40,468 nt of DNA, taken from an uncultured Dehalococcoidales bacterium (GTDB lineage Bacteria > Chloroflexota > Dehalococcoidia > Dehalococcoidales > JAUYDJ01). This document shows, in pieces, positions 3,960-37,086 of the stretch. A program made the translations under genes and the position numbers. The notes beneath the pieces are model-generated. The model had not been told where the DNA came from, did not search any database, and saw nothing but the letters and a program-made list of their open reading frames with translations. Where the stretch lies: positions 1 to 40,468 of the forward strand of contig CAYFGR010000002.1 in the NCBI GenBank assembly GCA_964343135.1. The letters are read 5' to 3'. The first letter of the stretch is position 1. Each line of letters begins with the position of its first letter.

Positions 3960-3988
3960 ATAACACTTTAATCCGAGGAGGCAACACA

Positions 3989-9233: not shown

Positions 9234-9536
9234 GACTATCCTCCTCGTACCAAATTCTAACATTATAAATATTTTCCAACAACCAGCCATTTTGTACCTA
9301 CGGGGGTGAGAATTTTATAAAAAAGGAAGTCTGATAGACTTTGTAAGGGAAGACAGGGGTCATCGGTAAACAACAACTATCCTAGGAAACATTGCCATGA
9401 GTGGAGAAAAATTATAAACTTTTGACTAGTGTTACTTTTAACTTGTCTCCACTGATTACCCCCCACTTAGTAACTTGCTGGCTACATTAGATTGGGACTG
9501 TGCTTTTTATTAAGCTGTTGAATACGGATATTAGAA

Positions 9537-19731: not shown

Positions 19732-19762
19732 TTATACCGCCGTAAACTATTAGGGGTTGTCG

Positions 19763-20404
19763 GTGAAGACACTATCCTCTAAACAGCAAAAAATTATTGA
19801 TTTCATCCAGCAATTTTGGGTAGATAATGGCTATCCACCCACTGTGCGGGAGATAGTCATTGCCTGCGGGATTAGCTCAACATCCGTGGTGGATTATAAC
19901 CTGAGTATACTGGAGCGGGCCGGTTGCCTTCGGCGCCGCCCTGAAGTATCGCGTGGTATTGAGTTACTTTCCCGGTCGAGTCTGCTGAGGCAGCGTCTTC
20001 AAATCCCCATAATCGGTCAAATTGCCGCCGGTGAACCGATACCGGTCCCGGCGCCGGATTTCTGGTACGATACCGCTTCCTTAGAGACGATAGAAGTGAC
20101 CGAAGACCTGGCGAGGGGTAGGGAATGGGTTTATGCCCTGAAAGTGAAGGGAAAATCCATGGTGGATGCCTTAATTAACGATGGTGATATTATCCTGATG
20201 CAGCATGTAAATGCGGTGGAAAACGGGGAGATGGCGGCGGTATGGCTCAAGGTGGAAAAGGAAGTTACCCTGAAGAAGGTCTATCGGGAATCGGGAAGTA
20301 TCCGACTCCAGCCGGCGAATGACCAGATGCAGCCAATATATACCCGGCCCGACGATGTTGAGATTCAGGGGAAAGTTATTGCCGTAATAAGGCAAATGGA
20401 GTAG
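19763..20404 (+). CDS. lexA: LexA repressor (S24 peptidase)
   Basis: It has an N-terminal winged HTH (QQKIIDFIQQFWVDNGYPPTVREI), the cleavage region IAAGEP, and Ser/Lys dyad regions KGKSMVDALI and TLKKV. The GTG at 19763 (AGGGG 6 nt upstream) is preferred over the track TTG at 19757. Confidence 0.9.
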   Translation: MKTLSSKQQKIIDFIQQFWVDNGYPPTVREIVIACGISSTSVVDYNLSILERAGCLRRRPEVSRGIELLSRSSLLRQRLQIPIIGQIAAGEPIPVPAPDFWYDTASLETIEVTEDLARGREWVYALKVKGKSMVDALINDGDIILMQHVNAVENGEMAAVWLKVEKEVTLKKVYRESGSIRLQPANDQMQPIYTRPDDVEIQGKVIAVIRQME

Positions 20405-20570
20405 CTTTCATTTCCGAGGTTTCCCCGGGTACCATAGGGTCCGGGGGTCAGTGTTCCCTTATAATGGCTGATTTGACTTCTCATGGTAATTAGTATACAT
20501 TTCTAGTGTCTTTTATCGGCAGATAGGCGGGACCAATTACATCGTATTACCGTTAACGGAAAAGGAAGTA

Positions 20571-21140
20571 ATGAGTTTATCCCAGTTTCGTAGTATTGGA
20601 CATGACCTCTTCGTGCGTGGGCTTGTTTCCTCCCATAGCGGGAATCTGAGTATCCGGCTGGGCGACCGTCTGATTATTACCCGGCGGGGCAGTCGTCTCA
20701 GTTGTATTAATGAGAATGATTTAATTGAGACCGGGGTAGATAAGAATGACCGGTCTACGCCGCTCGCTTCAAAGGAACTGGTTGTTCATCGGGCTATCTA
20801 TCAGGCAACCACGGCTTTAGCTATCGTTCATGCCCACCCACCGCATACCATTGCCTTATCGCTGACAAAAACGGAGATTGTGCCCAGCGGCGTCGAAGAC
20901 TTCTCGGTAGTCGGTCAGGTTCCCGTCCTCGGTTCGTACGGTGAGGTTGACGTGGAGGGTCTGGCGGAAGTTATCGCTCAGGCGCTAACGAAATGCCATA
21001 TTGTTGTGGTTCGGGGTCACGGTAGTTTTGCCATCGGACAGTTACTTGATGAGGCTTATAATTACACTACCGTGCTAGAGGAAAGCAGCCAGGTTAACTG
21101 CCTGTTAAGGTCGTTGCAAAACGACTCATCCGGAGACTAG
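20571..21140 (+). CDS. Class II aldolase/adducin-family protein (FucA/MtnB-like)
   Basis: [28 protein letters not shown] and [10 protein letters not shown] are typical of the family. Confidence 0.8.
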
Positions 21141-21326
21141 GTTCAGCACTTATCCCGTTTTCTTTTTTACCCCCCCTCCCCCCGCCAGGTTGGCGGATGT
21201 CTTTACCCAGAGTCGGACGAGTGGTAAGATAGGCGGACGGGATGAAGCCAGGCAGGTAGCCGGTAGGTGATTATCGCCATAATCCCGGTAATAATATCAC
21301 TGACTATTATGTAGACTCTCTGCGAC

Positions 21327-22244
21327 TCATTTACTATGAACCGGTCGGCACCATTCCAGATATTTGAGATTACGGCCGCGGATGACATCGAAATAAATGT
21401 TCTGGAGTTTCTTGGTTATCTCACCAATTTTACCGTCCCCGATTTGGCGGTGGTCCACTTCAGTTACAGCGGTAATATTGGCGGCGGTGCCGGTCATAAA
21501 AGCCTCATCAGCGAAGTAGAGTTCACTGCGGACAACCTGTCTTTCCACCACTTCAATCCCGAACTCGTTTCGTGCCAGTTCTATCACGGTATTGCGAGTG
21601 ATACCGGGGAGGACGCTGTTGTACTCGGCGGGTGTAACTAATCTCCCGTCGATGACCAGGAAAATATTCTCACCGCTTCCTTCCGAGACGTAGCCATCGG
21701 GGGTAAGCATAATTGTCTCATGAAAGCCGTTCTCGATAGCCTCGGTTTTGGCAAGGGCATTGTTAGCGTAGAGACCGGTTATCTTAACCTGAGGCGGAAT
21801 GACGTTATCACTGGGACGCCGCCATGAGGAGACGGCGCACTTGATCCTGTCTTCTTTGAGGTAGGGTCCCCATGGGAAAACAAAAACGAGGAAATCACAA
21901 TCCAGGTCATATAGCCGTACGTACAAAGACTCGGAGCTTTTGTATGCCAGGGGGCGGATGTATACGTCTTCCTGGATACCACTCTTCTGCACCAGCTCCG
22001 TTATAATCTGGCAGAGGTCGTCGGCAGTATAGGGTAGGTCCATCTTCATCACCTGGCAGCCACGGAGCAATCTTTGAAAATGTTCCTTCGGGCGGAAGAG
22101 AAAAGTCTGTTTCTGTTCTTCGTTCCAGTTTCCTCTAATACCCTCAAAAACAGCGGTACCGTAGTGGAGGGCATGGGTCATAACCCCAATCTTGGCGTCA
22201 GCTAAGGGCATAAACTTCCCCTGAAAAAAAGCATATGGCGGCAT
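21327..22244 (-). CDS. ilvE: Branched-chain amino acid aminotransferase (fold type IV PLP)
   Basis: Motifs are HALHYGTAVFEGIRGN, AKTEAIENGFHETIMLTPDGYVSEGSGENIFLV and GITRNTVIELA. Confidence 0.9.
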   Translation of the reverse strand: MPPYAFFQGKFMPLADAKIGVMTHALHYGTAVFEGIRGNWNEEQKQTFLFRPKEHFQRLLRGCQVMKMDLPYTADDLCQIITELVQKSGIQEDVYIRPLAYKSSESLYVRLYDLDCDFLVFVFPWGPYLKEDRIKCAVSSWRRPSDNVIPPQVKITGLYANNALAKTEAIENGFHETIMLTPDGYVSEGSGENIFLVIDGRLVTPAEYNSVLPGITRNTVIELARNEFGIEVVERQVVRSELYFADEAFMTGTAANITAVTEVDHRQIGDGKIGEITKKLQNIYFDVIRGRNLKYLEWCRPVHSK

Positions 22245-22502
22245 CTTGGTAAATCTCCTTCCGTTATATGGGTAAGATAGCGTTTATTATATCGTGTTGC
22301 CGTAGTAGAAGACAAGTTATCTTACTTTATGTTAATTGGTACCTTTGGCTGGTAAATCCCTCCCCCGTATCCCCTGTCTTTTAAAGGAGAGGGGGATTAA
22401 TGGGGGGGCTCATATACCCCGTCCGATGATGCTGGACTAAAATTTAAGTTACATGGTATATAATAAAGAATATCCATATTAGTAACCGATTGGAGGTGAC
22501 TT

Positions 22503-22883
22503 ATGCCGGAAGAGTTATCCCGGGAAACGCTGGAGGCATTGCTGGAGGCGCTGCCCACCGACCTGAACTTTGTTGATGAAACCGATACCATCCGGTATCG
22601 CCGGGCTCGCCGAGTATTTCGATCAAAACCGGAAGTAATCGGGCAGAAAGTACAGGACTGCCACTCGGCAGCATCGGTGCCCATGGTAAACTGGATTATC
22701 AGCGATTTTAAGTCAGGGAGGGAAAAAGAATTCGAGTTTTGGAAAGACCGCAAGGGGCGTAAGATATACATCAGGTATTTCCCGGTAAAAGACAAAGCCG
22801 GTAAGTATATCGGTACTCTTGAGGTCATCGAGGATATTACGGATATACGGAAAATAACCGGGGAAAAGACGGAGCTGGATTGA
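22503..22883 (+). CDS. Stand-alone PAS-domain protein of the type normally fused to DUF438/hemerythrin modules
   Basis: LPTDLNFVDETDTIRYRR...VIGQKVQDCHSAASVPMVNWIISDFKSGREKEFEFW...IYIRYFPVKDKAGKYIGTLEVIEDIT. A strong RBS (GGAGGTG) precedes the ATG. Confidence 0.65.
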   Translation: MPEELSRETLEALLEALPTDLNFVDETDTIRYRRARRVFRSKPEVIGQKVQDCHSAASVPMVNWIISDFKSGREKEFEFWKDRKGRKIYIRYFPVKDKAGKYIGTLEVIEDITDIRKITGEKTELD

Positions 22884-22908
22884 GGGGTAGAGTTTGAATT
22901 AAGCAATC

Positions 22909-24132
22909 CTACCTCGACAAATCCGGCGCATGCAGGGTGTAGCCGCCGTCGGTTTCCGGGAAGACATCTTTTAACCGCATGGTACTGCCGGTTTGAATGG
23001 CGGTAAAGCCGTACTTCTTGCGGATACGGTCAATCGCTTTATTTAGCTGCTCTTGTCTTCGGGCAGAAGAGTCCAGCATATCTAACTGCCGGCCCGTCTC
23101 CGTCAGGTTTGATACCCCGATGCCGATAAGGCGGACCGGCTGTCTTTCCTGAGCCAGCGCTTTGGTGAGTAGTTCCAGCCCGATTCTGGTAATAGTCTGG
23201 TCAGTATCGCTGGCTGGCTTCAGGGTATGACTGCGGGTGATGGTGGTGAAATCGGCATACCTCAGCTTCAAGGTGACGCACCGGGCCTGTTTATTCTGTT
23301 GGCGTAGCTGGCTGCCAACCCGTTCGCTGAGATAACGCAGCGTCGTCTTCAGGAAGGAGCGGTCGGCGGTGTCCCGGCCAAAGGTGGTCTCCCGGCTGAT
23401 GGACTTAGCCGCCCCGGGCGGGGTCACCTTTCGGTCGTCAATACCGCTGGCATAGCGATGTAGAAGCTCACCAAACGTACCAAAATAGCTTTTCAGGACG
23501 CTTAACGGTACCAGGGATAGTTCACCACCTATGGTATTAACGCCCAGACCCCTCAAAATTCGTTCCGTCTTCCTGCCGATCCCGGGTAGCTTGGCGATAT
23601 CCAGGGGTGCCAGGAACGAGCCTTCGTCGCCGCTGGTGACCTCCAGCAAACCATCCGGCTTGGATAAATCCGAGGCAACTTTAGCCACAATCTTGGCGCC
23701 GGAAATACCCACCGAGGCGTTAAGCCCCAGTTCGTCTCTGATACGTCGCTTAATAACCTGCGCCATCTGACGAATAGTGCCATAAAGAGATTCAAAACCG
23801 GTTACATCCAGATAGGCTTCATCCAGGCCGCTCGGCTCCAGGAAGGGGGTGAAATCAGCCAGAATCGCCATGAACTTTCGTGAAGCATCGCGATACTTGG
23901 TAAAGCTGCCCTCGATGAAGATAGCCTGGGGGCAGAGACGATAAGCGGTAATCAGCGGCATGCCGGAATGTATCCCAAAACGCCGGGCTTCGTACGATAC
24001 GGCGGCGGCCACCCCGCGGCGCTCCGGTTTGCCGCCCACGATTACCGGCTTGCCCTTAAGCTCGGGGTTGTCAACCTGTTCTACCGAAACAAAGAAGGCA
24101 TCAAGATCAATATGCATAATGGTGCCGGCCAT
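22909..24132 (-). CDS. dinB: DNA polymerase IV (Y-family translesion polymerase)
   Basis: Motifs are MHIDLDAFFVSVEQ, LDEAYLDVTG and SVGISGAKIVAKVASDLSKPDGL. The ATG overlaps the upstream stop (TAATG). Confidence 0.92.
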   Translation of the reverse strand: MAGTIMHIDLDAFFVSVEQVDNPELKGKPVIVGGKPERRGVAAAVSYEARRFGIHSGMPLITAYRLCPQAIFIEGSFTKYRDASRKFMAILADFTPFLEPSGLDEAYLDVTGFESLYGTIRQMAQVIKRRIRDELGLNASVGISGAKIVAKVASDLSKPDGLLEVTSGDEGSFLAPLDIAKLPGIGRKTERILRGLGVNTIGGELSLVPLSVLKSYFGTFGELLHRYASGIDDRKVTPPGAAKSISRETTFGRDTADRSFLKTTLRYLSERVGSQLRQQNKQARCVTLKLRYADFTTITRSHTLKPASDTDQTITRIGLELLTKALAQERQPVRLIGIGVSNLTETGRQLDMLDSSARRQEQLNKAIDRIRKKYGFTAIQTGSTMRLKDVFPETDGGYTLHAPDLSR

Positions 24133-25732: not shown

Positions 25733-27580
25733 ATGACACATTATTTCTGTAGCTTGTCGTTTAGACTCCTGTTATCAAAACTTAAAGGTATTAATGTCCG
25801 TCTCTTTAAGTCAAATACCTCAGTTCCCCTGTTTATCCCCGTGTTAAGAAAGATTCCCCCTATTAAAACCAAGCTGGATAATATTGCTCAAGAGCCGGAT
25901 GTACATATCGGGGACTATAAAGGTCTTAATTATCGACTGAACAACGAGGCTCTGGAATGTACCGATTTTATCTATGAGAAATTAGGCTTGGAGGATTGCC
26001 ATTTCATTAAGATATACAATGAAAGATTTAAAACCAATAAACTTAAACCATTTGTTTTAAAATGGATTTCTATGTATGTCTTTGAGCTGTTAATTTGTCT
26101 TTACCGGATTCATCTTGATAGCCCCTCATTAAAGTTATTATATCTGGACGATAACTCCCTCAATCGGCATATTTATGAATGGTGGTACTGGAAAACGGGG
26201 GATATTATACAAATACAATGGCTGAAACAGAGTGATCTGAGAATTGGCTTGGCGACCTTAGCACTTAGTGCGTTGACATTTGTTTTTAGACCATTCTTCC
26301 GCGGGTTGTGCCTGCCGGCTAAACCCAAAAAATTCAAAATAATGAAGGAAGCAACGTGGGGACTGCAAAATCCCGTCTTTCGTGACGACTTTTTTATCGA
26401 CGGTGAAAAGCTGCTTAAACAAGATTTGTTGCTTTACACTTACGGTTCCCGTCATGAAGGTCGCACGTTTGCTTATAAGGATGCTCAAAATAGCGGTTAT
26501 CAATGTATCAACCGAACTAACCTTAAAATTCCCTTGAACCTTCTGTGCCAACGTTTATTTAAGTATCACTTCCTGTTACCGGTGGTCCTTATTCTTAAAA
26601 ATATTAAAAATAAGCGAAATTATCTCCTGAGAGAGTGGCTCACCGCGTTCCACGGAGCGGCCGTCAATTATGAGATCTTGCTGTCCCACTATCAAATCGG
26701 CCTTGATTTGAGTGTCAACGAGGCAAGCTTATCTCATATTCCGGAAACGATACTACTGAATAACTACGGCGCCAAGAGTGTTATTTTCCACTGGTCAGAT
26801 CTGCTCACTTATTATCATAGTGATGACGATTTGAAATCTTTTAATGTGTATTTGATATGGGGGAAGGCGCACTCTCACGGTAAACGATATTTTGTTGACA
26901 GCATGGTAGAAACCGGGTGCTGGCTGAAACACAACTTTGGCGAGTTCACCAGGAATAAAAAGAGGATTTATGAAAACTTGGGGTTACCCGTTAATTCCCC
27001 TAAGGTATTATTAGCCTTCTACGATACTACAATTGACCCTGATTTCCATTTTACTGAAGACGTATTACTGGATTTCTGGCAGCTAATGTTTGAAATTGTG
27101 GACGGAAACAAGAATGTCATTGGGATAATGAAACCTAAAGTGGCGGACAGAGTAAAGCACTTAAAGTTGTCGGATAAGGGTGATGAAATCTATAATAAGA
27201 TTAGGCAAAGGTGTTTGGAAAACGGACGGGTCTATTTTATAGATAACCCGAGTGAATTCGCGGTAACTGAAGTTATTGCGATATCAGACATAAATATAAC
27301 TATGGGAATGGGGAGTCCATCTACTATCGCTTTGTTATGCGGGAAAATTGGGCTATACTATGATACCACCGGAAGTGACTACCACCCGTTCACCCGGAGA
27401 TATAGAAAAAAACTGGTATTTGATAATAAAGGGGATTTGTTCTCTGTGGTCAGGAATATCACTGATGGCGCCTATAATCCTCTACCTGAGATTGACGAAG
27501 AACTATTAAGAGGATTCGACCAATTTCGGGATGATAAGGGCTTGGAAAGATTTAAACAGGCGCTGCTGGATAATCTATAG
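25733..27580 (+). CDS. 615-aa orphan protein, AT-rich; the C-terminal half is vaguely GT-B/capsule-transferase-like (function unknown)
   Basis: This is a long uninterrupted ORF in the most AT-rich part of the window. I recognise no motif with confidence. Segments such as VIFHWSDLLTYYHSDDD, VLLAFYDTT and SDINITMGMGSPSTIALLCGKIGLYYD are reminiscent of Rossmann-type sugar/phosphosugar transferases. No clear RBS precedes the ATG. Confidence 0.6.
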   Translation: MTHYFCSLSFRLLLSKLKGINVRLFKSNTSVPLFIPVLRKIPPIKTKLDNIAQEPDVHIGDYKGLNYRLNNEALECTDFIYEKLGLEDCHFIKIYNERFKTNKLKPFVLKWISMYVFELLICLYRIHLDSPSLKLLYLDDNSLNRHIYEWWYWKTGDIIQIQWLKQSDLRIGLATLALSALTFVFRPFFRGLCLPAKPKKFKIMKEATWGLQNPVFRDDFFIDGEKLLKQDLLLYTYGSRHEGRTFAYKDAQNSGYQCINRTNLKIPLNLLCQRLFKYHFLLPVVLILKNIKNKRNYLLREWLTAFHGAAVNYEILLSHYQIGLDLSVNEASLSHIPETILLNNYGAKSVIFHWSDLLTYYHSDDDLKSFNVYLIWGKAHSHGKRYFVDSMVETGCWLKHNFGEFTRNKKRIYENLGLPVNSPKVLLAFYDTTIDPDFHFTEDVLLDFWQLMFEIVDGNKNVIGIMKPKVADRVKHLKLSDKGDEIYNKIRQRCLENGRVYFIDNPSEFAVTEVIAISDINITMGMGSPSTIALLCGKIGLYYDTTGSDYHPFTRRYRKKLVFDNKGDLFSVVRNITDGAYNPLPEIDEELLRGFDQFRDDKGLERFKQALLDNL

Positions 27581-27615: not shown

Positions 27616-28605
27616 ATGAAAATAAATGCAGGAATAATTGGATTCGGCAATATCGGTTTCATCTTTGATGAGGACCCAAAGCGGAAACAGGTCTCATCTC
27701 ATGCCGGTGCTTACCTGGCTTCTCCCAACGTAGAAATTGTGGCCGGAGCCGACTCTGACGCAACCAAGCTGAGCCGGTTTTCCAGGAGGTGTCCCCGGGC
27801 TGGGATATACCGGGATTACGGGGAAATGCTGAATGATAATAGGCTGGATATCGTGAGCATCTGCTCTCCAACCGCTTCACATTTTGAAATACTATCCCGG
27901 GTGGTAGATTCCGATGTACGGGCGATATTTTGTGAAAAACCACTGGCTTCACGAATTGAAGATGCTCGGCAAATGGTAGATATCTGCCAGGCGAAAAGTA
28001 TTATTCTGGCAGTTAACCACACCCGGCGATGGGATCAAAGGTACCGCCATGTAAAAGAATATATCGACCAGGGAAAAATCGGTGAGATAAGAAGCATCAG
28101 TGGCAACTATTCCGACAAGGTGTTTATGATAGGCACGCACCTTATAGATATGCTGAGGTATTATGCAGGAGATGTGGACTGGGTTGCTGGCGAGGGGGAA
28201 AATCCGGAATCTGACGACCCGGCGATATCCGGACTTATATTTTTCCGGAACGGGGCTAGGGGATTCATAACATGTAACGGTAAGAGAGAGAATCTCATCT
28301 TTGAAATCGATGTATTAGGCTCAGAGGGAAGAATCCGAATTGTAGATAATGGTTATCTTACCGAATTCTTTCGTTTCAATGAAAGTGACAGGTATTCCGG
28401 TTACCATGAATTGAAAAGACAGGCTGTGCCCGAAGTAAATGTGGTCCAGAATCCACTGGTTGTTGCCATTGAAAACATAATCGAGTGCCTTCAGGAAGAC
28501 GGCGAGCCAGCCTGTACCGGAGAAGATGGTTTGAAGTCCCTGGAGATAGCCGTGGCTCTTTGCGCGTCGGCAAGAAATAACAGTGAAAAGATAAAATTAT
28601 ACTAA
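27616..28605 (+). CDS. Gfo/Idh/MocA-family NAD(P)-dependent sugar oxidoreductase
   Basis: It has the N-terminal Rossmann MKINAGIIGFGNIG, the CEKPLA (EKP) motif, and AVNHTRRWD. Confidence 0.85.
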   Translation: MKINAGIIGFGNIGFIFDEDPKRKQVSSHAGAYLASPNVEIVAGADSDATKLSRFSRRCPRAGIYRDYGEMLNDNRLDIVSICSPTASHFEILSRVVDSDVRAIFCEKPLASRIEDARQMVDICQAKSIILAVNHTRRWDQRYRHVKEYIDQGKIGEIRSISGNYSDKVFMIGTHLIDMLRYYAGDVDWVAGEGENPESDDPAISGLIFFRNGARGFITCNGKRENLIFEIDVLGSEGRIRIVDNGYLTEFFRFNESDRYSGYHELKRQAVPEVNVVQNPLVVAIENIIECLQEDGEPACTGEDGLKSLEIAVALCASARNNSEKIKLY

Positions 28606-28654
28606 TGAACCCGGGGTATCAGATTACCGGTGTAATCGAGGAGATAGGGAATAA

Positions 28655-30016
28655 ATGGAAAAGTTAGCGCTGCTCGGGGGTAATCCGGTCAGGAAAGATC
28701 CATTTAGGAGTACCGTGGTCATTGATGAAGATGAAATATCTGCCGTTATGGATGTTTTAAAAGCGAAGGAGCTTTCCCGATTTATTGGCAGTTCATCACC
28801 GGACATAGAAGAGCAACTGGTTATGAATAGTGCCCAGGCTCTAAATTATGGCGGTCAGGGCTTTTCGTTCCTCGGGGGTAGAAAAGTAAGACAATTCGAG
28901 GCTGAGTTTGCCCAGTGCTTTGGTGTAAAATATGCCATCACCGTAAATTCAGCAACGTCCGGACTGTCTTTAGCTTTAGCCGCGGCTGGAGTCGGTCCGG
29001 GAGATGATGTGATTACAACGTGCCTGTCATTTAACGCTACCGGCACAAGCATATTACTTTTTAACTCTATCCCTTTGTTTGTGGATATAAGCGAGGAAAA
29101 TTTTTGCTTAAATCCACAAGAAGTCAGGAAGGCGATAACTCCCCAGACAAGAGCGGTTTTAGCTGTCCACCTTCTGGGTAATGCCGCGGATATGGATGCC
29201 ATCATGAATATCGCTCGAGAACATAATCTTGTCGTAATCGAAGATTGTGCCCAGGCGGCGGGGACCAGGCATGGCGGTCAATATGTGGGGACGATTGGGG
29301 ATATCGGTGTTTTTAGTTCACAGGAGCCTAAGCATATATCGACGGGAGAGGGAGGCATTGTCATCACGAACAATCCGCAATATGCCCGGAGATGCCGGCT
29401 TATCCGAAATCATGGTGAATCTATTCCCGATGACAGTACTCCTGTGGAGGATTTAGTCAACATTGTGGGCTGTAATTTCCGGATGACCGAGCTTACCGCG
29501 GCTGTTGGGAACGCTCAGTTAAAGAAGCTTTTCGAAAATAACCGGGTCAGAAGCGAAAATGCCAGATTCCTTGCCCGGGAACTCAATATATTCGAGGGTA
29601 TTGAAATACCCCCGGTAGTGTACAATGAGGAGTACGTAGTCCATGTACTCTCTATCCTGTATCATTCGGGCAAGGTTGGGGTATCCAGAGAGACATTTGT
29701 GAAAGCTTTGCGGGCAGAAGGAATCCCAGTTGGTACGGGATACGCCAGAATCATGCCGGATAATCCGCTATTTCTAAAAAAGATAGCCTACGGCAAGCAA
29801 CAATGTCCCTTCTCATGCCCGTATTACGGACGGGATGTGGATTACGCCGGTGGGCGGTACCCGGTTGCCCGGGATTTTATTAATAATAAGCAGATTTCCT
29901 TTCAGCTCATAAGCCGGCCGAATACTCTGGATGACATGAAAGATGTCGTAAAAGCATTTGAGAAGATTTACGCAAATCTGGAGCAACTGAAATCAGCGGA
30001 AGGTGAAAAATCTTAA
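28655..30016 (+). CDS. DegT/DnrJ/EryC1/StrS-family PLP sugar aminotransferase (long 453-aa form)
   Basis: Motifs are AITVNSATSGLSLALAAAGVGPGDDVIT, the IEDCAQAAG motif, and SSQEPKHISTGEGG with the catalytic Lys. It has N- and C-terminal extensions relative to the 380-aa paralog at 38669. Confidence 0.85.
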   Translation: MEKLALLGGNPVRKDPFRSTVVIDEDEISAVMDVLKAKELSRFIGSSSPDIEEQLVMNSAQALNYGGQGFSFLGGRKVRQFEAEFAQCFGVKYAITVNSATSGLSLALAAAGVGPGDDVITTCLSFNATGTSILLFNSIPLFVDISEENFCLNPQEVRKAITPQTRAVLAVHLLGNAADMDAIMNIAREHNLVVIEDCAQAAGTRHGGQYVGTIGDIGVFSSQEPKHISTGEGGIVITNNPQYARRCRLIRNHGESIPDDSTPVEDLVNIVGCNFRMTELTAAVGNAQLKKLFENNRVRSENARFLARELNIFEGIEIPPVVYNEEYVVHVLSILYHSGKVGVSRETFVKALRAEGIPVGTGYARIMPDNPLFLKKIAYGKQQCPFSCPYYGRDVDYAGGRYPVARDFINNKQISFQLISRPNTLDDMKDVVKAFEKIYANLEQLKSAEGEKS

Positions 30017-30961: not shown

Positions 30962-31672
30962 ATGAACGTAGTTGGTGTCATCCATGCCCGGGGTGGTTCC
31001 GTCAGGGTTCCTTTAAAGAATATTAAAGAGTTAGCCGGGAAACCGCTGATAGCTTATATTATCCAGGCGGCATTAGCCGCCGGGACTATAAATCGAGCTA
31101 TCGTCTCCAGCGACCACCCTGAGATAATAAAGATATCTAAAATGTATGGCGCTGAGGTTCCCTTTGTCCGACCTAAAGATATTTCCGAAGACGTTCCTTC
31201 TGAGCTTGTTACTCAGCACGCGGTCAATTATCTGGAGAAGGAAGAGGGCTACCATGTTGACATTGTGGTTACTCTTCAACCAACCACGCCTTTCTGTCTA
31301 CCGGAGGATATCGATGGGTGCGTCCACGAACTGATGGCTTCAGATGCGGATTCAGTAATCAGCGTTTGTAATATTTCGGAGAGACCGGAATGGATGTTTT
31401 ACACGGATGAATCGGGCTATGCGCATAATTTTCTTGAGAAAAAGATTGAGGGGGATACGGGAATATCTCAGAAACTGCCCCGTCTCTATATTCCCAATGG
31501 TGGTATCTACGCTACTAAGCGGGATGTCTTGTTTAACCAGGGTGTTATAATTGGTAGGAAGACCCGGCTATGGGTTTTGCCGCGAGAACGCTCTGTAGAT
31601 ATTGATGAACCCCTCGATTTTTTGCTTGCCGAGTTCCTGATTAACCGGGGATTTAAGGCGACAACAGAGTAA
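30962..31672 (+). CDS. neuA: Acylneuraminate cytidylyltransferase-family CMP-nonulosonate synthetase
   Basis: IHARGGSVRVPLKNIKELAGKPLIAYII, LQPTTPF and IPNGGIYA fit the family. The symbol is family-level only (could be LegF/PseF). Confidence 0.85.
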   Translation: MNVVGVIHARGGSVRVPLKNIKELAGKPLIAYIIQAALAAGTINRAIVSSDHPEIIKISKMYGAEVPFVRPKDISEDVPSELVTQHAVNYLEKEEGYHVDIVVTLQPTTPFCLPEDIDGCVHELMASDADSVISVCNISERPEWMFYTDESGYAHNFLEKKIEGDTGISQKLPRLYIPNGGIYATKRDVLFNQGVIIGRKTRLWVLPRERSVDIDEPLDFLLAEFLINRGFKATTE

Positions 31673-31715
31673 GAAATATAAAAACAGGGTCAAAGTAATC
31701 TGGAGGTAGTAACTA

Positions 31716-31904
31716 ATGTCACAGTATTTAAAGGGAAATTACAGACTCCCGAAGAAAGTGAATCCTGGGGTTAATAAGAATCAGCCGACCACAGCGGAGA
31801 AATTTGAGCAAGAAACTCTGACTAAGCTGGGGGGTAGTATTGCCTTTGTCATGAAACCCAAGACCTTTGTCTGGGACGGCGAGGAGAATGAAAAGACTGT
31901 CTAA
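31716..31904 (+). CDS. 62-aa hypothetical protein
   Basis: An excellent RBS (GGAGG) lies 9 nt before the ATG. The sequence is MSQYLKGNYRLPKKVNPGVNKNQPTTAEKFEQETLTKLGGSIAFVMKPKTFVWDGEENEKTV. The 3' end overlaps the next gene by 17 nt. No recognisable family. Confidence 0.4.
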   Translation: MSQYLKGNYRLPKKVNPGVNKNQPTTAEKFEQETLTKLGGSIAFVMKPKTFVWDGEENEKTV

Positions 31905-32892
31905 GACTCAACTCGAAATTATTGCCCGGCAAACACTGGAGAAGACGGCTGAAATAGGTTGGGAGAACGCTCAGAAAAACCGGTCTTATATCAGGAAAAC
32001 AATCCTTGATCTGCCCCGGGAGGCGCCTACCCGTGATGCTGACTCTGCCGTCATTGTTTCGGCAGGGCCCAGCTTGCACCGGCGTCATCCCGCGCCAGCT
32101 ATTGTAGCTTCGAAATTCAAGGGGCCAATTATCGCGGCGGATGGTGCGTTAGGTTACTGCCTTCGTAACGGTCTTGTCCCCGGTTATGTGGTTACGGTTG
32201 ACCCTCATCCAACGCGTATCATTCGATGGTTCGGTGACCCCGCCCTTGCCCAGCGAGAGCCTGACGACTACTTTCAGCACCAAGATTTAGACCCGGCTCT
32301 GACCCGGCAAGAAAAAGCCCGTAATGAGGAACTTCTCGACCTGGTAAATCGGTATGGCAAAAGTATTAAGGTAATTATTTCCACCAGTGTCGACCTGGAA
32401 CTGACCCTCCGGTGCCTGGAAGCCGGTATGGAGCTATATTGGTGGAATCCCCTCTACGATGACTACGATAGTCCCAACAGTTACTCGCGTCGGGTCTACC
32501 AGCTTACCAGGGTGCCCTGTATGGTGACCGGGGGGAACTGTGGGACCTCGGCGTGGGTTTTTGCTCATGCGGTTCTCCACAGCAAACGAACGGCTCTGCT
32601 CGGTATGGACTTGAGTTATCATCCGGACACACTGGTTCAAAATACCCAATATTACAGACAGCTGGTAGAACTCTTTGGTGACCGGGCTGACGAGGCTTTT
32701 ATCCGGGTCTACAACCCTTACCTTAAGGAAACGTGGTATACCGACCCTACCTACTACTGGTATCGGCAGGGCCTGCTTGAATTGGCGAGGCAAGCTGATT
32801 GCGAGACCTATAATTGTACCGAAGGGGGGATTGTTTTCGGGAAGGGAATTAAATTCATCCCCTTCAAAGATTTTCTGGAAAGATTTAGTTAA
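31888..32892 (+). CDS. DUF115 (Maf / MptE-like) protein, candidate nonulosonic-acid transferase
   Basis: SAVIVSAGPSL....PIIAADGALGYCLRNGLVPGYVVTVDPH is the hallmark of the DUF115/MAF_flag10 fold. I chose the ATG at 31888; the track TTG at 31867 is also possible. Confidence 0.7.
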   Translation: MKRLSKTQLEIIARQTLEKTAEIGWENAQKNRSYIRKTILDLPREAPTRDADSAVIVSAGPSLHRRHPAPAIVASKFKGPIIAADGALGYCLRNGLVPGYVVTVDPHPTRIIRWFGDPALAQREPDDYFQHQDLDPALTRQEKARNEELLDLVNRYGKSIKVIISTSVDLELTLRCLEAGMELYWWNPLYDDYDSPNSYSRRVYQLTRVPCMVTGGNCGTSAWVFAHAVLHSKRTALLGMDLSYHPDTLVQNTQYYRQLVELFGDRADEAFIRVYNPYLKETWYTDPTYYWYRQGLLELARQADCETYNCTEGGIVFGKGIKFIPFKDFLERFS

Positions 32893-32907: not shown

Positions 32908-34404
32908 GTGGCAAAAGTGCTCTTCATTAACCCGGTTCTCCGTCAGGAAGACGCACCACGGCATGTTCCTTACGGCATGGCATTACTGGTCGCGCTTGTG
33001 CGGGAAGCAGGGCATAAGGTCCAGGTTTTTGATGCTAACGCCTGGCGACCCACCGACCAGGTACTTAGTGAAGTGTTGGGTGCTGATGCGTGGGACGTAA
33101 TTGCCACCGGTGGGCTTATTACGAGCTACGGGTATATAAAAAAGGTAGTCAAAAGTGCCCGTAATATATGTCCTGAATCACTCATCGTAGCCGGCGGGGG
33201 CTTCCTCACTGCCATTCCCCATGACATTATGGAGCTTCTGCCTGAAATTGATATCGGTGTGGTCGGAGAGGGCCTGTTAACCTTCCCCGAGATACTTAAG
33301 ATGGCGACTAGTAAAGACGGTGACTGGTCCAACGTGCCGGGGATCATCTGGAGAAATAAGGGAGGACGCTCTCACCTTAATCCGGCGAGGCCTCTCATGG
33401 AGGACCTTGACTCTCTGCCTTACCCCGCCTGGGAAGCCTTCCCCCTGCATATCTACTTTCGTAACAGCTCCCTTTTGATGAGTGAAGAAGCGATGCTGGC
33501 CAGGCGGAGGCTCGACATTATCACGAGCTATGGATGTCCGTTTGGATGCCGTTTTTGTTTCCACCTGGGCCTTAGCGGTGAACTCGAAACTTCAGATACT
33601 CCGGCACGGCGGGAGGTTATCTTCACTCGCAAACGGAATATCCGGTGGCACAGCCCGAAATATGTTGTCGGCCTGATTAAATATGCGCGCCAATGGTTTA
33701 AGGTCGACTTTATCTCGTTTCTTGATGAGAACTTCATTTGTTTGAATAAATACACTCACGGGCAGTGGATACTTGAATTTCACGATCTTTGGATTAAAGC
33801 TGGCTTACAGCCTCAGTGCACTCGTGAAGGTCGACCACACGATGCCAAATACTGCCACGGCGTTCACTGGGGTACTTCCGCCCATGCGGCTCTGGTCGAT
33901 GCTCCAACGTTAAATAAAATGCGAGAGGTAGGCTGTTCTTACCTTGATTACGGGTTAGAGTCCTTCTCCGACCGGATTCTGAAATCAATAGCCAAAGGCT
34001 CAACCAGTAAACTGAATGAGAGGGCAATCAGGCTCACACTGGAAGCGGGCATTAGACCGATTCCTAATCAGATTATTGGCTCTCCGGAAGAAGACTTCGA
34101 CAGTATTAAAGCTAATGTCCTGGCTTGGGAGCGGCTCGGGATTCAGACTTATCCCTTTTTGGCCACCCCCTATCCCGGCTCGGAATGGTACTTTAAGTAT
34201 AAAAAGCAGATTTTAAGGCAATACGACGGCAACCTGGACGCATTTCTTCTGGACCTGGGTGATGCCACCAAACTGACGGCGGTAATATCCAAGAATTTCA
34301 ATGCCGTTGAGCTTTTGGGACTTCGGGAACTAATGGTGAACCGTGACCTGAAGCGTATTAACGAGTATGAACAAATATGGCAAAAATCACGAGGGTCGCT
34401 GTGA
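32908..34404 (+). CDS. B12-binding-domain radical SAM enzyme (class B-like)
   Basis: The N-terminal cobalamin-binding-type Rossmann is KVLFINPV...GMALLVALVREAGHKVQVFD...IATGG. The CX3CX2C motif SYGCPFGCRFC lies at 33535..33558. It uses a GTG start 6 nt after GGTGGGAGG. Confidence 0.85.
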   Translation: MAKVLFINPVLRQEDAPRHVPYGMALLVALVREAGHKVQVFDANAWRPTDQVLSEVLGADAWDVIATGGLITSYGYIKKVVKSARNICPESLIVAGGGFLTAIPHDIMELLPEIDIGVVGEGLLTFPEILKMATSKDGDWSNVPGIIWRNKGGRSHLNPARPLMEDLDSLPYPAWEAFPLHIYFRNSSLLMSEEAMLARRRLDIITSYGCPFGCRFCFHLGLSGELETSDTPARREVIFTRKRNIRWHSPKYVVGLIKYARQWFKVDFISFLDENFICLNKYTHGQWILEFHDLWIKAGLQPQCTREGRPHDAKYCHGVHWGTSAHAALVDAPTLNKMREVGCSYLDYGLESFSDRILKSIAKGSTSKLNERAIRLTLEAGIRPIPNQIIGSPEEDFDSIKANVLAWERLGIQTYPFLATPYPGSEWYFKYKKQILRQYDGNLDAFLLDLGDATKLTAVISKNFNAVELLGLRELMVNRDLKRINEYEQIWQKSRGSL

Positions 34405-35459
34405 TGATTACGGTAAAAATAGCGGGTAGACTGGTGGGCGATGGCGAGCCTTGCTTTATCATTGCCGAAGCGGGGGTTAATCACAACGGTGATATTAAGC
34501 TGGCCCGGAAGTTGATTGATGTTGCCAAAGAAGCTGGTGCCGATGCCATAAAATTTCAAACCTTTAAGGCGGAGGAGCTGGTAACCAGAAATGCCGAAAA
34601 GACCGCGTATCAAAGGGAAACTACGCCCGCCGAGGAATCCCACTATGATATGGTAAGGAAACTGGAGCTTGCCAGGAAAGATTTTAGAGAGTTATTTGCC
34701 TATGCTCAAGAAAAAGGAATGATATTCCTCTCCACTCCGTTTGATAAAGGTAGTGTGGATTTGCTGGACGAACTGGGGGTTACCGTGTTTAAGGTCGGCT
34801 CCGGAGAGATTACCAATTTCCCCTTGCTCAAGTATATTGCCCGGAAAAGCAGGCTGATTATTTTATCTACCGGTATGGCCACCCTGCCCGAAATTGAGGC
34901 GGCCCTGGAGACGATTAAAGGGGGAGGCAGTAATGATATTATACTGCTCCACTGTGTCTCCAGCTATCCGGCAAAAGTAGAAGATATGAATCTCCGGACG
35001 ATGCAGACATTAAGGGACACATTCAAGCTACCGGTCGGCTTGTCTGACCATTCGCGGGGCATTACAATACCGGTAGCGGCGGTTGCGTTGGGAGCCTGCC
35101 TGATTGAAAAGCATTTCACCCTGGATAATAGCCTTCCGGGTCCTGACCACCAGGCATCGCTGGAGCCGGACGGACTAAAGCAGATGGTAACCGCGATAAG
35201 AGATGTGGAAAAGGCAATGGGTGATGGGATAAAGAGACCTACCGTGGTCGAGGAAGCAATTAAAAAGGTAGCTCGGCGCAGCATAGTGGCTGGGGGAGAT
35301 ATTCCCCGGGGAACAGTGATTACCAGGGAGATGCTAGATATTAAAAGACCCGGGACTGGGCTTGAGCCAAAGTACCTGGGAGAGATTATCGGGAGAACCG
35401 CGGAAGTCACGATAAAGAAGGATGAAATCATAACCATAAGTCAGTTACGGGGTAAGTAG
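34404..35459 (+). CDS. neuB: NeuB-family nonulosonate (N-acetylneuraminate/legionaminate/pseudaminate) synthase with C-terminal SAF domain
   Basis: Motifs are CFIIAEAGVNHNGDIKLARKLIDVAKEAGADAIKFQTF, KVGSGEITNFPLL and GLSDHS. The C-terminus is IKRPGTGLEP...I. The ATG overlaps the upstream stop (TGATG). Family-level symbol. Confidence 0.88.
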   Translation: MITVKIAGRLVGDGEPCFIIAEAGVNHNGDIKLARKLIDVAKEAGADAIKFQTFKAEELVTRNAEKTAYQRETTPAEESHYDMVRKLELARKDFRELFAYAQEKGMIFLSTPFDKGSVDLLDELGVTVFKVGSGEITNFPLLKYIARKSRLIILSTGMATLPEIEAALETIKGGGSNDIILLHCVSSYPAKVEDMNLRTMQTLRDTFKLPVGLSDHSRGITIPVAAVALGACLIEKHFTLDNSLPGPDHQASLEPDGLKQMVTAIRDVEKAMGDGIKRPTVVEEAIKKVARRSIVAGGDIPRGTVITREMLDIKRPGTGLEPKYLGEIIGRTAEVTIKKDEIITISQLRGK

Positions 35460-36452
35460 GTGAAGGTCGTATTCATTGGTATCGTTAGTATCGGGTGGCA
35501 CTGTCTCAAGTCACTGTTGGAAAGCGGAGCTAATATCGTGGGGATAATCACGGCGGATAAGCAGGAAATGATAAAAAGATCACACATGCACGCCGATTAT
35601 TTCAGCGAGTTTGAGGACTTAGCCCAGGAATACGGCGCCCCTTTGTATAAGATAAGGGATGTCAGTATTCCACTCGACGCCAAAAGAATCAGGGAGCTAC
35701 AGCCAGACATAATCTTCTGCATAGGCTGGCCTCAGATGGTCAAAAAAGAACTTCTGGAAATCCCGAAACACGGGTGCATTGGTATTCATCCAACGCTGCT
35801 ACCGGAGCGTCGGGGAGGCGCCCCGATTAACTGGTGCCTGATAGACGGCTTGACCAAAAGTGGAGTGACACTCTTCTATTTTAGCGAAGGGGTGGATTCC
35901 GGCGATATTATTGCTCAAAGGGAGTTAGAGATAGCCCTAGAAGATACCGCCGGTAAAGTTCTAGACAAGGTGACCGATACCTCTGTGGAACTCATCAAGG
36001 AGTGTTATTCCCTTCTGGGAAAGGGAAAAGCCCCCCGTCTGCCTCAGGATGATACCAAAGCCACTTACACCCCCCGCCGCCGCCCCGAAGACGGGGCTAT
36101 TGATTGGAGTAAAACCTCATTCTCCATTTATAACTGGATAAGAGCTTTGACTTTGCCTTTCCCGGGGGCTTTTACTTATTGGAACGGAGAAAAGATAATT
36201 GTATGGGAATCAGAACTATTAATGGGATATAAGCCACGATTTGGTGCTCAACCGGGCGAGATTTTAGATATTATGGATAATAATGGAGTAGCCGTCGCCA
36301 CCGGGGACAGTTGTATTCTGATTAAGACCGTTGAAGCCGGTGGACAAACCATGAACAGTTTTGAATTGATACAGAAATACAGGATTACAACTAGCGCTAT
36401 TCTGGGGGAGAAAAAACATGGCTGGAGTGCTGGTAATCGCACCTCACCCTGA
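35460..36452 (+). CDS. Fmt/ArnA-like formyltransferase (probable sugar N-formyltransferase)
   Basis: Motifs are GIHPTLLPERRGGAPINWCLIDG and TLFYFSEGVDSGDIIAQ, plus a C-terminal Fmt-like beta-barrel domain. It is distinct from the housekeeping fmt at 8286. The GTG start directly follows the upstream TAG. Confidence 0.8.
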   Translation: MKVVFIGIVSIGWHCLKSLLESGANIVGIITADKQEMIKRSHMHADYFSEFEDLAQEYGAPLYKIRDVSIPLDAKRIRELQPDIIFCIGWPQMVKKELLEIPKHGCIGIHPTLLPERRGGAPINWCLIDGLTKSGVTLFYFSEGVDSGDIIAQRELEIALEDTAGKVLDKVTDTSVELIKECYSLLGKGKAPRLPQDDTKATYTPRRRPEDGAIDWSKTSFSIYNWIRALTLPFPGAFTYWNGEKIIVWESELLMGYKPRFGAQPGEILDIMDNNGVAVATGDSCILIKTVEAGGQTMNSFELIQKYRITTSAILGEKKHGWSAGNRTSP

Positions 36453-37086
36453 CGATGAAGTATTGGGTTGTGGGGGGACGATTGTAAAACATGTCTCGGA
36501 AGGAGATGAGGTTTATCTCTGCATCGTCACCAAAGCCTATCCCCCGGAATGGTCTGAAAATGAGATACGGGAGAGAAGAGATGAGGTGCTCAAAGTGAGC
36601 AAAATACTCGGTATAAAAAAGACCTGTTTCCTTGATTTGCCTACGGTAAAACTGGATACTATACCGCAAAAGGAGCTTAATGACCTCATCGGTCAGGTAG
36701 TAAACCAGGTGCAGCCGGGCATCGTTTATATTCCCCACCGGGGAGACGCTAATCGGGATCACCGGTTGGTTTTCGAGGCGGCGATGGTGGCTACAAGGCC
36801 AAAACCGGGCGCAACCGTCAGTAAAGTCCTCTGCTACGAAGCGCTATCCGAGACAGAGTGGGTAGCACCCTTTGTTCAAAATGTCTTTATGCCCAACGTA
36901 TATGCCGATATCTCCGCGGTACTGGAGATTAAGCTGAAAGCGATGTCAGAATATCGGCTTGAGCTTAAAGAATTCCCTCATCCGCGTTCCGTGGAAACTC
37001 TGACGGCTCTGGCTCAGATGAGAGGGGCTGCGGTTGGAGTAACCGCTGCCGAAGCTTTTATGCTGGTAAGGGAGATAAGGATATAA
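36418..37086 (+). CDS. PIG-L/LmbE-family N-deacetylase
   Basis: VLVIAPHPDDEVLGCGGTI and HRGDANRDH are zinc-binding signatures. It overlaps the upstream gene by 35 nt. Confidence 0.85.
   Translation: MAGVLVIAPHPDDEVLGCGGTIVKHVSEGDEVYLCIVTKAYPPEWSENEIRERRDEVLKVSKILGIKKTCFLDLPTVKLDTIPQKELNDLIGQVVNQVQPGIVYIPHRGDANRDHRLVFEAAMVATRPKPGATVSKVLCYEALSETEWVAPFVQNVFMPNVYADISAVLEIKLKAMSEYRLELKEFPHPRSVETLTALAQMRGAAVGVTAAEAFMLVREIRI

Follow-up and report, generated by a model that had tools for sequence, protein, structure and literature searches.

A small protein, a short Maf-type enzyme and a cobalamin radical SAM enzyme form an obligate cassette within nonulosonic acid operons of many bacterial phyla

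Introduction

What does a Maf-type protein do in a nonulosonic acid (NulO) operon when no flagellar gene lies nearby? This question is raised by a stretch of 40,468 nucleotides (nt) from contig CAYFGR010000002.1 of an uncultured Dehalococcoidales bacterium, which is referred to as "the window" in this study and whose positions are used for all coordinates unless a related locus is named. Within a NulO operon, the window carries a gene for a 334-amino acid (aa) protein of the DUF115 type, a domain found in motility-associated factors (Mafs), and directly upstream of it a 62-aa open reading frame (ORF). A first-pass annotation had proposed that the two together might represent a non-flagellar NulO protein glycosyltransferase with a small partner. 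To our knowledge, few transferases for bacterial sialic-acid-like sugars have been described apart from those that act on flagella, and we know of no reason why non-motile environmental lineages, such as Dehalococcoidales, Methylomirabilota, Omnitrophota and bacteria of the candidate phyla radiation (CPR), keep large NulO operons. Here, we define a new and very widespread small-protein family, a distinct clade of short Mafs and a cobalamin (B12) radical S-adenosylmethionine (SAM) partner as one obligate unit, and we weigh what this unit may do.

The three-gene cassette

The window proteins were run by tblastn against a sample of 80 homologous loci taken from species-representative genomes. In most of them, a match to the small protein was located immediately 5' of the DUF115 gene, and with a profile hidden Markov model (HMM) the small gene was found in 77 of the 80, the three misses being one truncated contig and two short contigs. 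The radical SAM gene was present in 78 loci, and both exceptions are contigs that end. The genes are closely packed, as 47 of 66 junctions between the small gene and the DUF115 gene overlap (with an identical 17-nt overlap in 12 loci from several phyla), and 66 of 77 junctions between the DUF115 gene and the radical SAM gene either overlap or span at most 60 nt. The small protein, the short Maf and the B12 radical SAM enzyme constitute an obligate, translationally coupled three-gene unit, of which the radical SAM gene is the obligate third member. The small/DUF115 pair noticed in the first-pass annotation is therefore real, together with the good ribosome-binding site and the 17-nt overlap that had been reported for it, and the 62-aa ORF, on whose conservation that annotation had staked its proposal, is among the best-conserved features of the locus; the radical SAM gene had not been linked to the pair.

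When the cassette is split, the small gene accompanies the radical SAM gene, as seen in two loci. In one of these (L033), a small-gene paralogue lies directly 5' of the radical SAM gene and 5.5 kb from the DUF115 gene, and in the other (L068), the order is DUF115, small gene, radical SAM gene. The first of these loci, from a marine Dehalococcoidia, has two paralogous 64-aa small genes (4212-4406 and 15774-15968 in that locus), neither of which adjoins the DUF115 gene. A 410-aa in-frame fusion (P0376, encoded at 206-1438 of L085) joins the small protein, as residues 1-62, to a short Maf, and it is the one such case in the database.

The 498-aa radical SAM protein contains a B12-binding domain (PF02310, E 2.4e-14) and a Radical_SAM domain (PF04055, E 1.1e-12), and the sequence CPFGCRFC (CxxxCxxC) is present in its translation, which makes it a class B (cobalamin-dependent) enzyme. 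Only sub-threshold matches (ApyD, BchE, HpnJ and others) were obtained for it among the NCBIfam equivalogs, and its relatives in the PDB are TokK and TsrM only, both weak. Across phyla, the radical SAM proteins are 52-65% identical and the DUF115 proteins 44-60%, which is at least as high as for the surrounding sugar-pathway enzymes; such conservation fits substrates that are themselves conserved. No description of the small protein, of the short Maf clade or of their link to a B12 radical SAM enzyme was found in the curated families and literature that we searched, and a literature search that combined NulO and either DUF115 or Maf with B12 or radical SAM returned nothing on this cassette.

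The small protein

The 62-aa ORF is a genuine, previously unannotated protein family. When it was compared with its three closest relatives, the differences fell mostly at third codon positions (for example, 29 versus 12 and 5 for L001), which is the pattern of a coding sequence. GGAG-type ribosome-binding sites precede the small gene in most homologous loci. At least 3100 database proteins match the small-protein profile at E<=1e-3, all of them about 45-125 aa long, all "hypothetical" and without a Pfam domain, and an exhaustive HMMER scan of 1.84 billion representatives (50% identity) yielded 214 matching clusters. None of the 52 members submitted to Pfam and NCBIfam matched any family there.

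The protein is 35-50% identical across a dozen phyla, and its conservation is concentrated in two motifs. The N-terminus carries M-x-x-[FYL]-L-K-G-N-[YF], whose spacing from the start is fixed; it is followed by a charged linker that is variable in both length and sequence, and then by a second motif, F-E-x-x-A-L-x-[KR]-L-G-G-S-I-[AC]-F-V-x-K...[FLV]-x-W, before a variable tail. Among 176 distinct sequences, no exception was seen at G7, N8, G40 or S41 and one each at E31 and K47 (175 of 176), and L38, G39, F44, V45 and W53 are nearly invariant; Thr never replaces Ser41. The AlphaFold2 (AF2) model of the small protein alone, made with 52 sequences, has a mean predicted local distance difference test score (pLDDT) of 62, a predicted TM-score (pTM) of 0.27 and a single helix at residues 26-38, so that the protein modeled by itself appears largely disordered and probably folds only on a partner.

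The invariant polar and glycine residues, the predicted disorder and the arrangement of two motifs around a variable linker make the small protein resemble a substrate or a ligand, as do the small gene's retention of its radical SAM neighbor where the cassette is split and its one fusion to a DUF115 gene. The first-pass annotation had considered a peptide substrate less likely than a partner subunit; we find a substrate at least as likely. Reading K-L-G-G|S as a double-glycine leader was tried and rejected, since its hydrophobic register is off by one and the neighboring ATP-binding cassette (ABC) exporters lack the C39 peptidase domain. The LGG-S of the small protein also recalls the LGGxS motif of peptidyl carrier proteins, which we take to be a mere resemblance.

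The short Maf-type enzyme

The ORF at 31867-32892 (+) would give 341 aa from a TTG codon, and the ATG at 31888 gives the 334-aa protein beginning MKRLSK; the ATG start is supported by 53 homologues, which align from exactly there. Both motifs quoted in the first-pass annotation, VIVSAGPSL and IIAADGALGYCLRNGLVPGYVVTVDPH, are present in this protein, and Pfam assigns it to PF01973 (MptE-like/DUF115) with E 1.7e-13 and 51 bits (cutoff 34.6). The match is restricted to residues 30-108 and covers only the N-terminal half of the model. At least 896 homologues were found, with a uniform length of about 335 aa, 44-60% identity across phyla and 43 invariant positions.

The AF2 model of the short Maf has a pLDDT of 92.7. 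In a Foldseek comparison with the PDB, the top match was the Magnetospirillum Maf 5MU5 (E 4e-8, 277 columns, query-normalized TM-score 0.51), which ranked above the archaeal MptE 8SD5 (E 9e-5, with TM-scores of 0.37-0.39 normalized to the query and 0.52-0.56 normalized to the target); thiamine-pyrophosphokinase-like proteins and ST8SiaIII followed as weaker matches. At the sequence level, the profile match to 8SD5 (E 3.3e-5) was limited to residues 49-103; the strand ending ...VSD in MptE reads V-T-V-D-P-H in the short Maf. When aligned by hhalign to the canonical 908-aa Maf of a related locus (L021), residues 29-334 of the short Maf paired with residues 209-459 of the long protein (probability 96%, E 2.9e-9, 239 columns), and the two have in common the SAGPSL motif, the xxD(G/A)A acid, a GG loop, G-x-D-L-S and the C-terminal N-x-T-E-x-G. 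As the alignment with Maf extends over the whole core and that with MptE is confined to the nucleotide-binding stretch, the short Maf is, judged by sequence and predicted structure, a stripped Maf catalytic core and not an MptE. We regard it as a putative protein glycosyltransferase. Kinship with the GT42 sialyltransferase Cst-II was considered and discarded, as hhalign gave a probability of 0.65% and no sequence-level link.

Neither the Maf_flag10_N domain (PF20157) nor a tetratricopeptide repeat (TPR) or helical acceptor domain was detected in the 334-aa protein by Pfam or in the AF2 model, and PF01973 is its only Pfam domain; both domains that flank the core in Mafs are missing. This agrees with the earlier expectation that acceptor-recognition domains would be lacking from a protein of "roughly half" the length of flagellar Mafs (334 aa against 666 for 5MU5, 640 positions in the NCBIfam PseD model and 840-926 for Mafs of related loci). 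The short Mafs also have features that canonical Maf lacks: a conserved, family-specific insertion of about 95 aa (roughly residues 107-200, RWFGD...DDYF..QDLDP...YWWNP.YDD), and Cys211 and Cys310, both invariant, with Cys91 nearly so. The cysteines and the insertion could possibly form a metal site or a docking surface.

Occurrence and gene neighborhoods

The closest relatives are metagenome-assembled genomes of Dehalococcoidales (75-82% identity). Carriers of the cassette span about 12 phylum-level labels, and include Nitrospirota, Methylomirabilota/Rokubacteria, Planctomycetota, Omnitrophota, Elusimicrobia, Acidobacteriota, other Chloroflexota, Latescibacterota, Nitrospinota, CPR Yanofskybacteria, and Delta-, Alpha- and Gammaproteobacteria. 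The sole locus with an archaeal label (L040, labeled Nitrosotalea sp.) has the gene order of two loci from Limnocylindria and Methylomirabilia (L036 and L049), and probably represents a binning error, not an archaeal occurrence.

All ORFs in the 80 loci were clustered to obtain a census of the neighborhoods. The recurrent neighbors make up a full legionaminic-acid-type NulO pathway: a CBS-domain nucleotidyltransferase (PtmE-like), a 4,6-dehydratase, a DegT aminotransferase, a PglD-like acetyltransferase, a hydrolysing 2-epimerase, NeuB and the synthetase for the cytidine monophosphate (CMP)-activated sugar. This CMP-NulO synthetase is the commonest upstream neighbor (59 of 80 loci, median position -891 nt). 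Around the pathway genes, tailoring genes vary (HisF/HisH/Asn-synthase-like, formyltransferase/PIG-L, acetamidino, GFO/DegT and methyltransferase genes), and the cassette itself is constant. ABC exporters are present in a minority of loci, without a peptidase domain, and the conserved core consists of the three cassette genes alone. A winged-helix plus Rossmann-like protein of about 212-217 aa is encoded immediately 5' of the small gene in 26 loci (for example, L050 2450-3103), often beside an ABC exporter; the loci in question are from Methylomirabilota and Nitrospira. As it looks like a regulator and is missing from the window, it was rejected as a recognition element of the core cassette.

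In nine loci (L004, L009, L014, L016, L021, L035, L065, L075 and L077), a canonical long Maf of 840-926 aa is encoded beside the cassette, composed of Maf_flag10_N, a full PF01973 domain (E 4.6e-41) and TPR; the copy in L021 has PF20157, PF01973 and TPR. Flagellin, FlaG or FliD genes were found within 10 kb of the cassette in 4 of the 80 loci (L021, L065, L072 and L077), and three of these four (L021, L065 and L077) are also among the nine with a long Maf. L021 has the Maf gene followed by those for flagellin, FlaG and FliD, L077 has flagellin and FlaG, and L065 has a partial flagellin gene. As a long Maf coexists with the cassette where flagellin is the acceptor, the short Maf appears to do something else and to serve a purpose other than flagellin glycosylation. 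The cassette is independent of flagellin, and of whatever terminal acceptor or transferase the lineage possesses.

The operon and the rest of the window

The cassette lies inside a single same-strand operon that extends from the gene for a 615-aa orphan protein through that for a 4,6-dehydratase (Table 1). The DUF115 gene is located, as the first-pass annotation had it, between the CMP-NulO synthetase gene and the radical SAM and NeuB genes, and the setting is non-flagellar, as no flagellar genes were found in the 40-kb window. The CMP-NulO synthetase is presumed to supply the donor for the short Maf. Scans for promoters and terminators stayed at background level, with nothing between the three cassette genes, and an Rfam scan of the operon revealed no riboswitch or other RNA.

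Table 1. Features of the NulO operon, in window positions, and long-Maf regions of two related loci, in the positions of those loci
Feature	Position	Strand	Remarks
615-aa orphan	25733-27580	+	Operon head
GFO/IDH/MocA oxidoreductase, then 453-aa DegT aminotransferase	27616-30016	+	
SAM methyltransferase, 291 aa	30028-30903	+	
CMP-NulO synthetase (PseF/LegF-like)	30962-31672	+	PF02348; TIGR03584 PseF, E 2e-42, below cutoff
GGAGG ribosome-binding site of the small ORF	31702-31706	+	Nine nt 5' of the ATG; read directly
Small-protein gene, 62 aa	31716-31904	+	3' end overlaps the DUF115 gene by 17 nt
Short Maf-type (PF01973/DUF115) gene, 334 aa	31888-32892	+	Pfam match
B12-binding radical SAM gene, 498 aa	32908-34404	+	PF02310 and PF04055; starts 15 nt past the DUF115 stop
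NeuB	34377-35459		Downstream of the radical SAM gene
ArnA/Fmt-like formyltransferase and PIG-L family deacetylase	35460-37086	+	ORFs overlap by 35 nt
Hydrolysing 2-epimerase, hexapeptide acetyltransferase, DegT aminotransferase, truncated 4,6-dehydratase			In this order 3' of the PIG-L gene, to the window end
Long-Maf region, L021	12561-20921		Includes flagellar genes
Long-Maf region, L004	12499-15147		

The idea that the DUF115 protein is the transferase by elimination fared only in part: none of the operon ORFs matched a Pfam glycosyltransferase family, but long Mafs are present in nine related loci, so that elimination provides no general rule. The 615-aa orphan, which had been named as the other possible transferase, matches TIGR04417 ("polysaccharide biosynthesis PFTS motif protein") weakly and below cutoff (E 3.7e-9). 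Its family, of 615-690 aa, adjoins the cassette in the window and in eight other loci; distant homologues (633-690 aa) are encoded directly 3' of the radical SAM gene in L011, L017, L031/L042 and L037, and the comparison of the window protein with the L042 member gave E 3e-10. We regard this recurrent family as a candidate transferase in its own right.

Several other features of the operon were noted. The formyltransferase/PIG-L pair suggests an exchange of N-acetyl for N-formyl on the sugar, and a separate Fmt-like gene lies at 8286-9290 (-). The GFO/IDH/MocA oxidoreductase, the long DegT protein (453 aa is an unusual length) and the CMP synthetase form a conserved block just 5' of the cassette that is also present in other Dehalococcoidales loci and in loci of Nitrospirota, Planctomycetota, Omnitrophota and Deltaproteobacteria. 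The 291-aa methyltransferase has an N-terminal CxxC...CxxC segment that is zinc-ribbon-like, with a weak Lar_restr_allev match. Outside the operon, the remainder of the window consists of housekeeping and origin-proximal genes (dnaA, gyrB, obg, relA and lexA). Two IPT/TIG-domain proteins that the first-pass annotation had put forward as acceptors are encoded at 2427-5680 (+), by ORFs that overlap by 145 nt as listed; they are 26 kb from the cassette and fall outside the conserved neighborhood of every related locus. At 19757-24132, the LexA gene lies 2.5 kb from a divergent Y-family polymerase gene in what resembles an SOS mutagenesis cassette, with an ORF of 169 aa without a family match just 3' of the polymerase gene.

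Discussion

A Maf core without acceptor domains, a co-translated peptide that bears conserved motifs and an obligate radical SAM enzyme need to be explained jointly. The most economical account, toward which we lean at somewhat less than even confidence, is a self-contained modification system: the short Maf would attach NulO to the small protein or work through that protein, and a second modification would be introduced by the radical SAM enzyme. Such a system would operate as follows: the short Maf, having kept the Maf catalytic core and lost both acceptor-handling domains, would use CMP-NulO from the neighboring genes; the co-translated small protein would be its dedicated partner and most likely the acceptor itself, with Ser41 of L-G-G-S as the best candidate site; and the B12 radical SAM enzyme would catalyze a second step, most plausibly a C-methylation, on either the peptide or the attached sugar. 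The dependence of Maf-2 on GlfM, a small protein encoded in cis (bioRxiv 10.1101/2023.12.03.569772), is a precedent for such a pairing. What we infer in this proposal is which donor and acceptor are used, which residue is modified, what chemistry the radical SAM enzyme carries out and what the product does in the cell. Its most specific form, that the short Maf O-glycosylates the invariant Ser of the ~60-aa protein with a legionaminic-acid-type sugar and that the cobalamin radical SAM enzyme then methylates the conjugate, is conceivable, and we hold it with considerable doubt.

Several points weigh against a self-contained system of this kind: a NulO-modified cytoplasmic peptide has no obvious use; neither a protease nor an exporter is part of the conserved core; the cores of ribosomally synthesized and post-translationally modified peptides (RiPPs) typically vary far more than the small protein does; invariance of Ser alone, with no Thr, is unlike flagellin-type O-glycosylation sites; the position of the cassette amid biosynthetic genes fits the tailoring of the sugar equally well; in one locus on a long contig (L023), neither NeuB nor a CMP synthetase is encoded within 10 kb of the cassette; and the fusion of the small protein with the short Maf is known from a single 1.9-kb metagenome contig, where it might be a frameshift error.

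Two other explanations deserve consideration, each of which we judge unlikely without dismissing it. The small protein might remain unmodified and act as a specificity subunit that links the short Maf to some other acceptor, for example a pilin, a lipid-linked glycan or a protein of the cell surface or S-layer, and either the sugar or that acceptor would be tailored by the radical SAM enzyme. There is a direct precedent for this in Maf-2 and its small partner GlfM (bioRxiv 10.1101/2023.12.03.569772), a case of a short Maf that relies on a small protein encoded in cis, which keeps the explanation alive; the translational coupling of the small and DUF115 genes is in line with it, and natural fusions such as the one observed typify subunits more than substrates. 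However, the small protein shares nothing with GlfM (a low-confidence single helix versus a four-helix bundle, upstream versus downstream), and an adaptor with 35-50% sequence identity across a dozen phyla, with and without flagella, would call for an acceptor just as universal, of which none is evident in the neighborhoods. A subunit role also leaves the small gene's following of the radical SAM gene in split loci unexplained. Alternatively, the three proteins might form a complex on the donor side, which would modify NulO or CMP-NulO, for example by B12-dependent C-methylation; the Maf-like protein would bind or process the nucleotide sugar without transfer to a protein, and the small protein would be a scaffold or an activator. 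The cassette's place amid biosynthetic genes, often with the CMP synthetase gene on one side and that for NeuB or the epimerase on the other, favors this, as does its presence independently of flagellin and whatever the terminal transferase (a long Maf, a PFTS-family protein or other glycosyltransferases), and Fom3, also a radical SAM enzyme of class B, has a CMP-activated substrate. Yet the donor could be modified without a transferase core of the Maf type and without a peptide that bears invariant Gly-Gly-Ser and Lys-Gly-Asn motifs; the N-acyl tailoring genes (formyl, acetamidino, GFO/DegT) differ between loci and the cassette does not; and no legionaminic acid derivative is known to us for which C-methylation would be needed.

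Far less probable is a pyrophosphokinase of the MptE type, which would transfer pyrophosphate from ATP to a hydroxymethyl substrate as does the archaeal 6-hydroxymethyl-dihydropterin pyrophosphokinase. The Pfam family is named after MptE, and the family profile and the structural comparison both recover 8SD5; against this, the sequence match is confined to the 55 or so residues given above and the rest, including the C-terminal N-x-T-E-x-G, aligns with Maf, the gene neighborhood offers no link to pterins or folate, and the sugar of the host, as read from the pathway genes and from what is established for the legionaminic acid pathway, is of the 9-deoxy type and has no primary hydroxymethyl group. 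We give still less credence to an ordinary flagellin Maf explained by flagellin genes elsewhere in the genome. The four loci with flagellin genes within 10 kb would speak for it, but three of them have a canonical long Maf as well, as do nine loci overall, and the short Maf lacks both accessory domains of Mafs. The closest relatives are from Dehalococcoidales and others from CPR Yanofskybacteria, both of which are generally regarded as non-flagellated, and the window itself has no flagellar genes.

These results caution that a DUF115 protein in a NulO cluster need not be a flagellin or surface glycosyltransferase. Depending on its function, the cassette would exemplify either a form of protein or peptide sialylation that is new or a radical reaction so far unknown from NulO biosynthesis. 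If the small protein is the acceptor, it would represent a new class of NulO-modified ribosomal peptide, and the most specific form of our proposal, if true, would make it the first dedicated protein substrate other than flagellin for an enzyme of the Maf type and the first ribosomal peptide known to bear a sialic-acid-like sugar, conserved across a dozen phyla including CPR bacteria.

Relation to known systems

Among the systems with which the cassette can be compared, MptE (8SD5, 6-hydroxymethyl-7,8-dihydropterin pyrophosphokinase) has in common with the short Maf the Pfam family and the nucleotide-binding stretch G-x-G-P-S ... A-D-G-A ... P-D. However, it is an archaeal protein of about 230 aa that lacks the C-terminal half found in both the short Maf and Maf, whereas the short Maf is bacterial, longer by about a hundred residues and encoded in a NulO operon. 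The resemblance to canonical Mafs (such as 5MU5, PseD/PseE and Shewanella Maf-1) is much broader, as these have the PF01973 core, with homology over the entire catalytic region, and their genes likewise adjoin those of CMP-NulO biosynthesis; what sets the short Maf apart is its size, the absence of Maf_flag10_N and of a C-terminal TPR/helical acceptor domain, and the absence of a flagellar tie. The NulO transferases of Tannerella forsythia were considered as further Maf-like proteins; they are GT-B/TagB-like according to the paper on them, and this comparison was dropped.

The cassette also has the appearance of a RiPP cluster, with the gene for a short, disordered, motif-bearing peptide directly 5' of those for modifying enzymes (a cobalamin radical SAM enzyme and a glycosyltransferase-like protein). 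Class B radical SAM enzymes modify ribosomal peptides in the bottromycin and polytheonamide pathways, and mycofactocin biosynthesis uses a radical SAM enzyme together with a glycosyltransferase. Unlike in RiPP clusters, the conserved core includes neither a protease nor an exporter nor a recognition-element domain, the peptide gene is present in single copy with a product that is uniform instead of hypervariable, and the whole is always embedded in a primary sugar-nucleotide operon; we know of no ribosomal peptide that carries a nonulosonic acid.

The nearest parallel to a small protein working with a short Maf is GlfM, an 89-aa cis-encoded protein that the 441-aa Maf-2 needs in order to reach flagellin (Unay, Kint and Viollier, bioRxiv 10.1101/2023.12.03.569772). 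GlfM is a four-helix bundle with FliS/FliT-like features, and is usually encoded downstream of its Maf. The small protein described here differs in being about 60 aa long, encoded upstream, unrelated in sequence and, when modeled alone, mostly disordered apart from its one helix (pLDDT 62), and its cassette adds an obligate B12 radical SAM enzyme in a window that has no flagellin. In both systems, nevertheless, a short Maf that has no acceptor domain of its own is paired with a small, conserved protein encoded in cis, which in the Dehalococcoidales operon is 62 aa long and co-translated with it.

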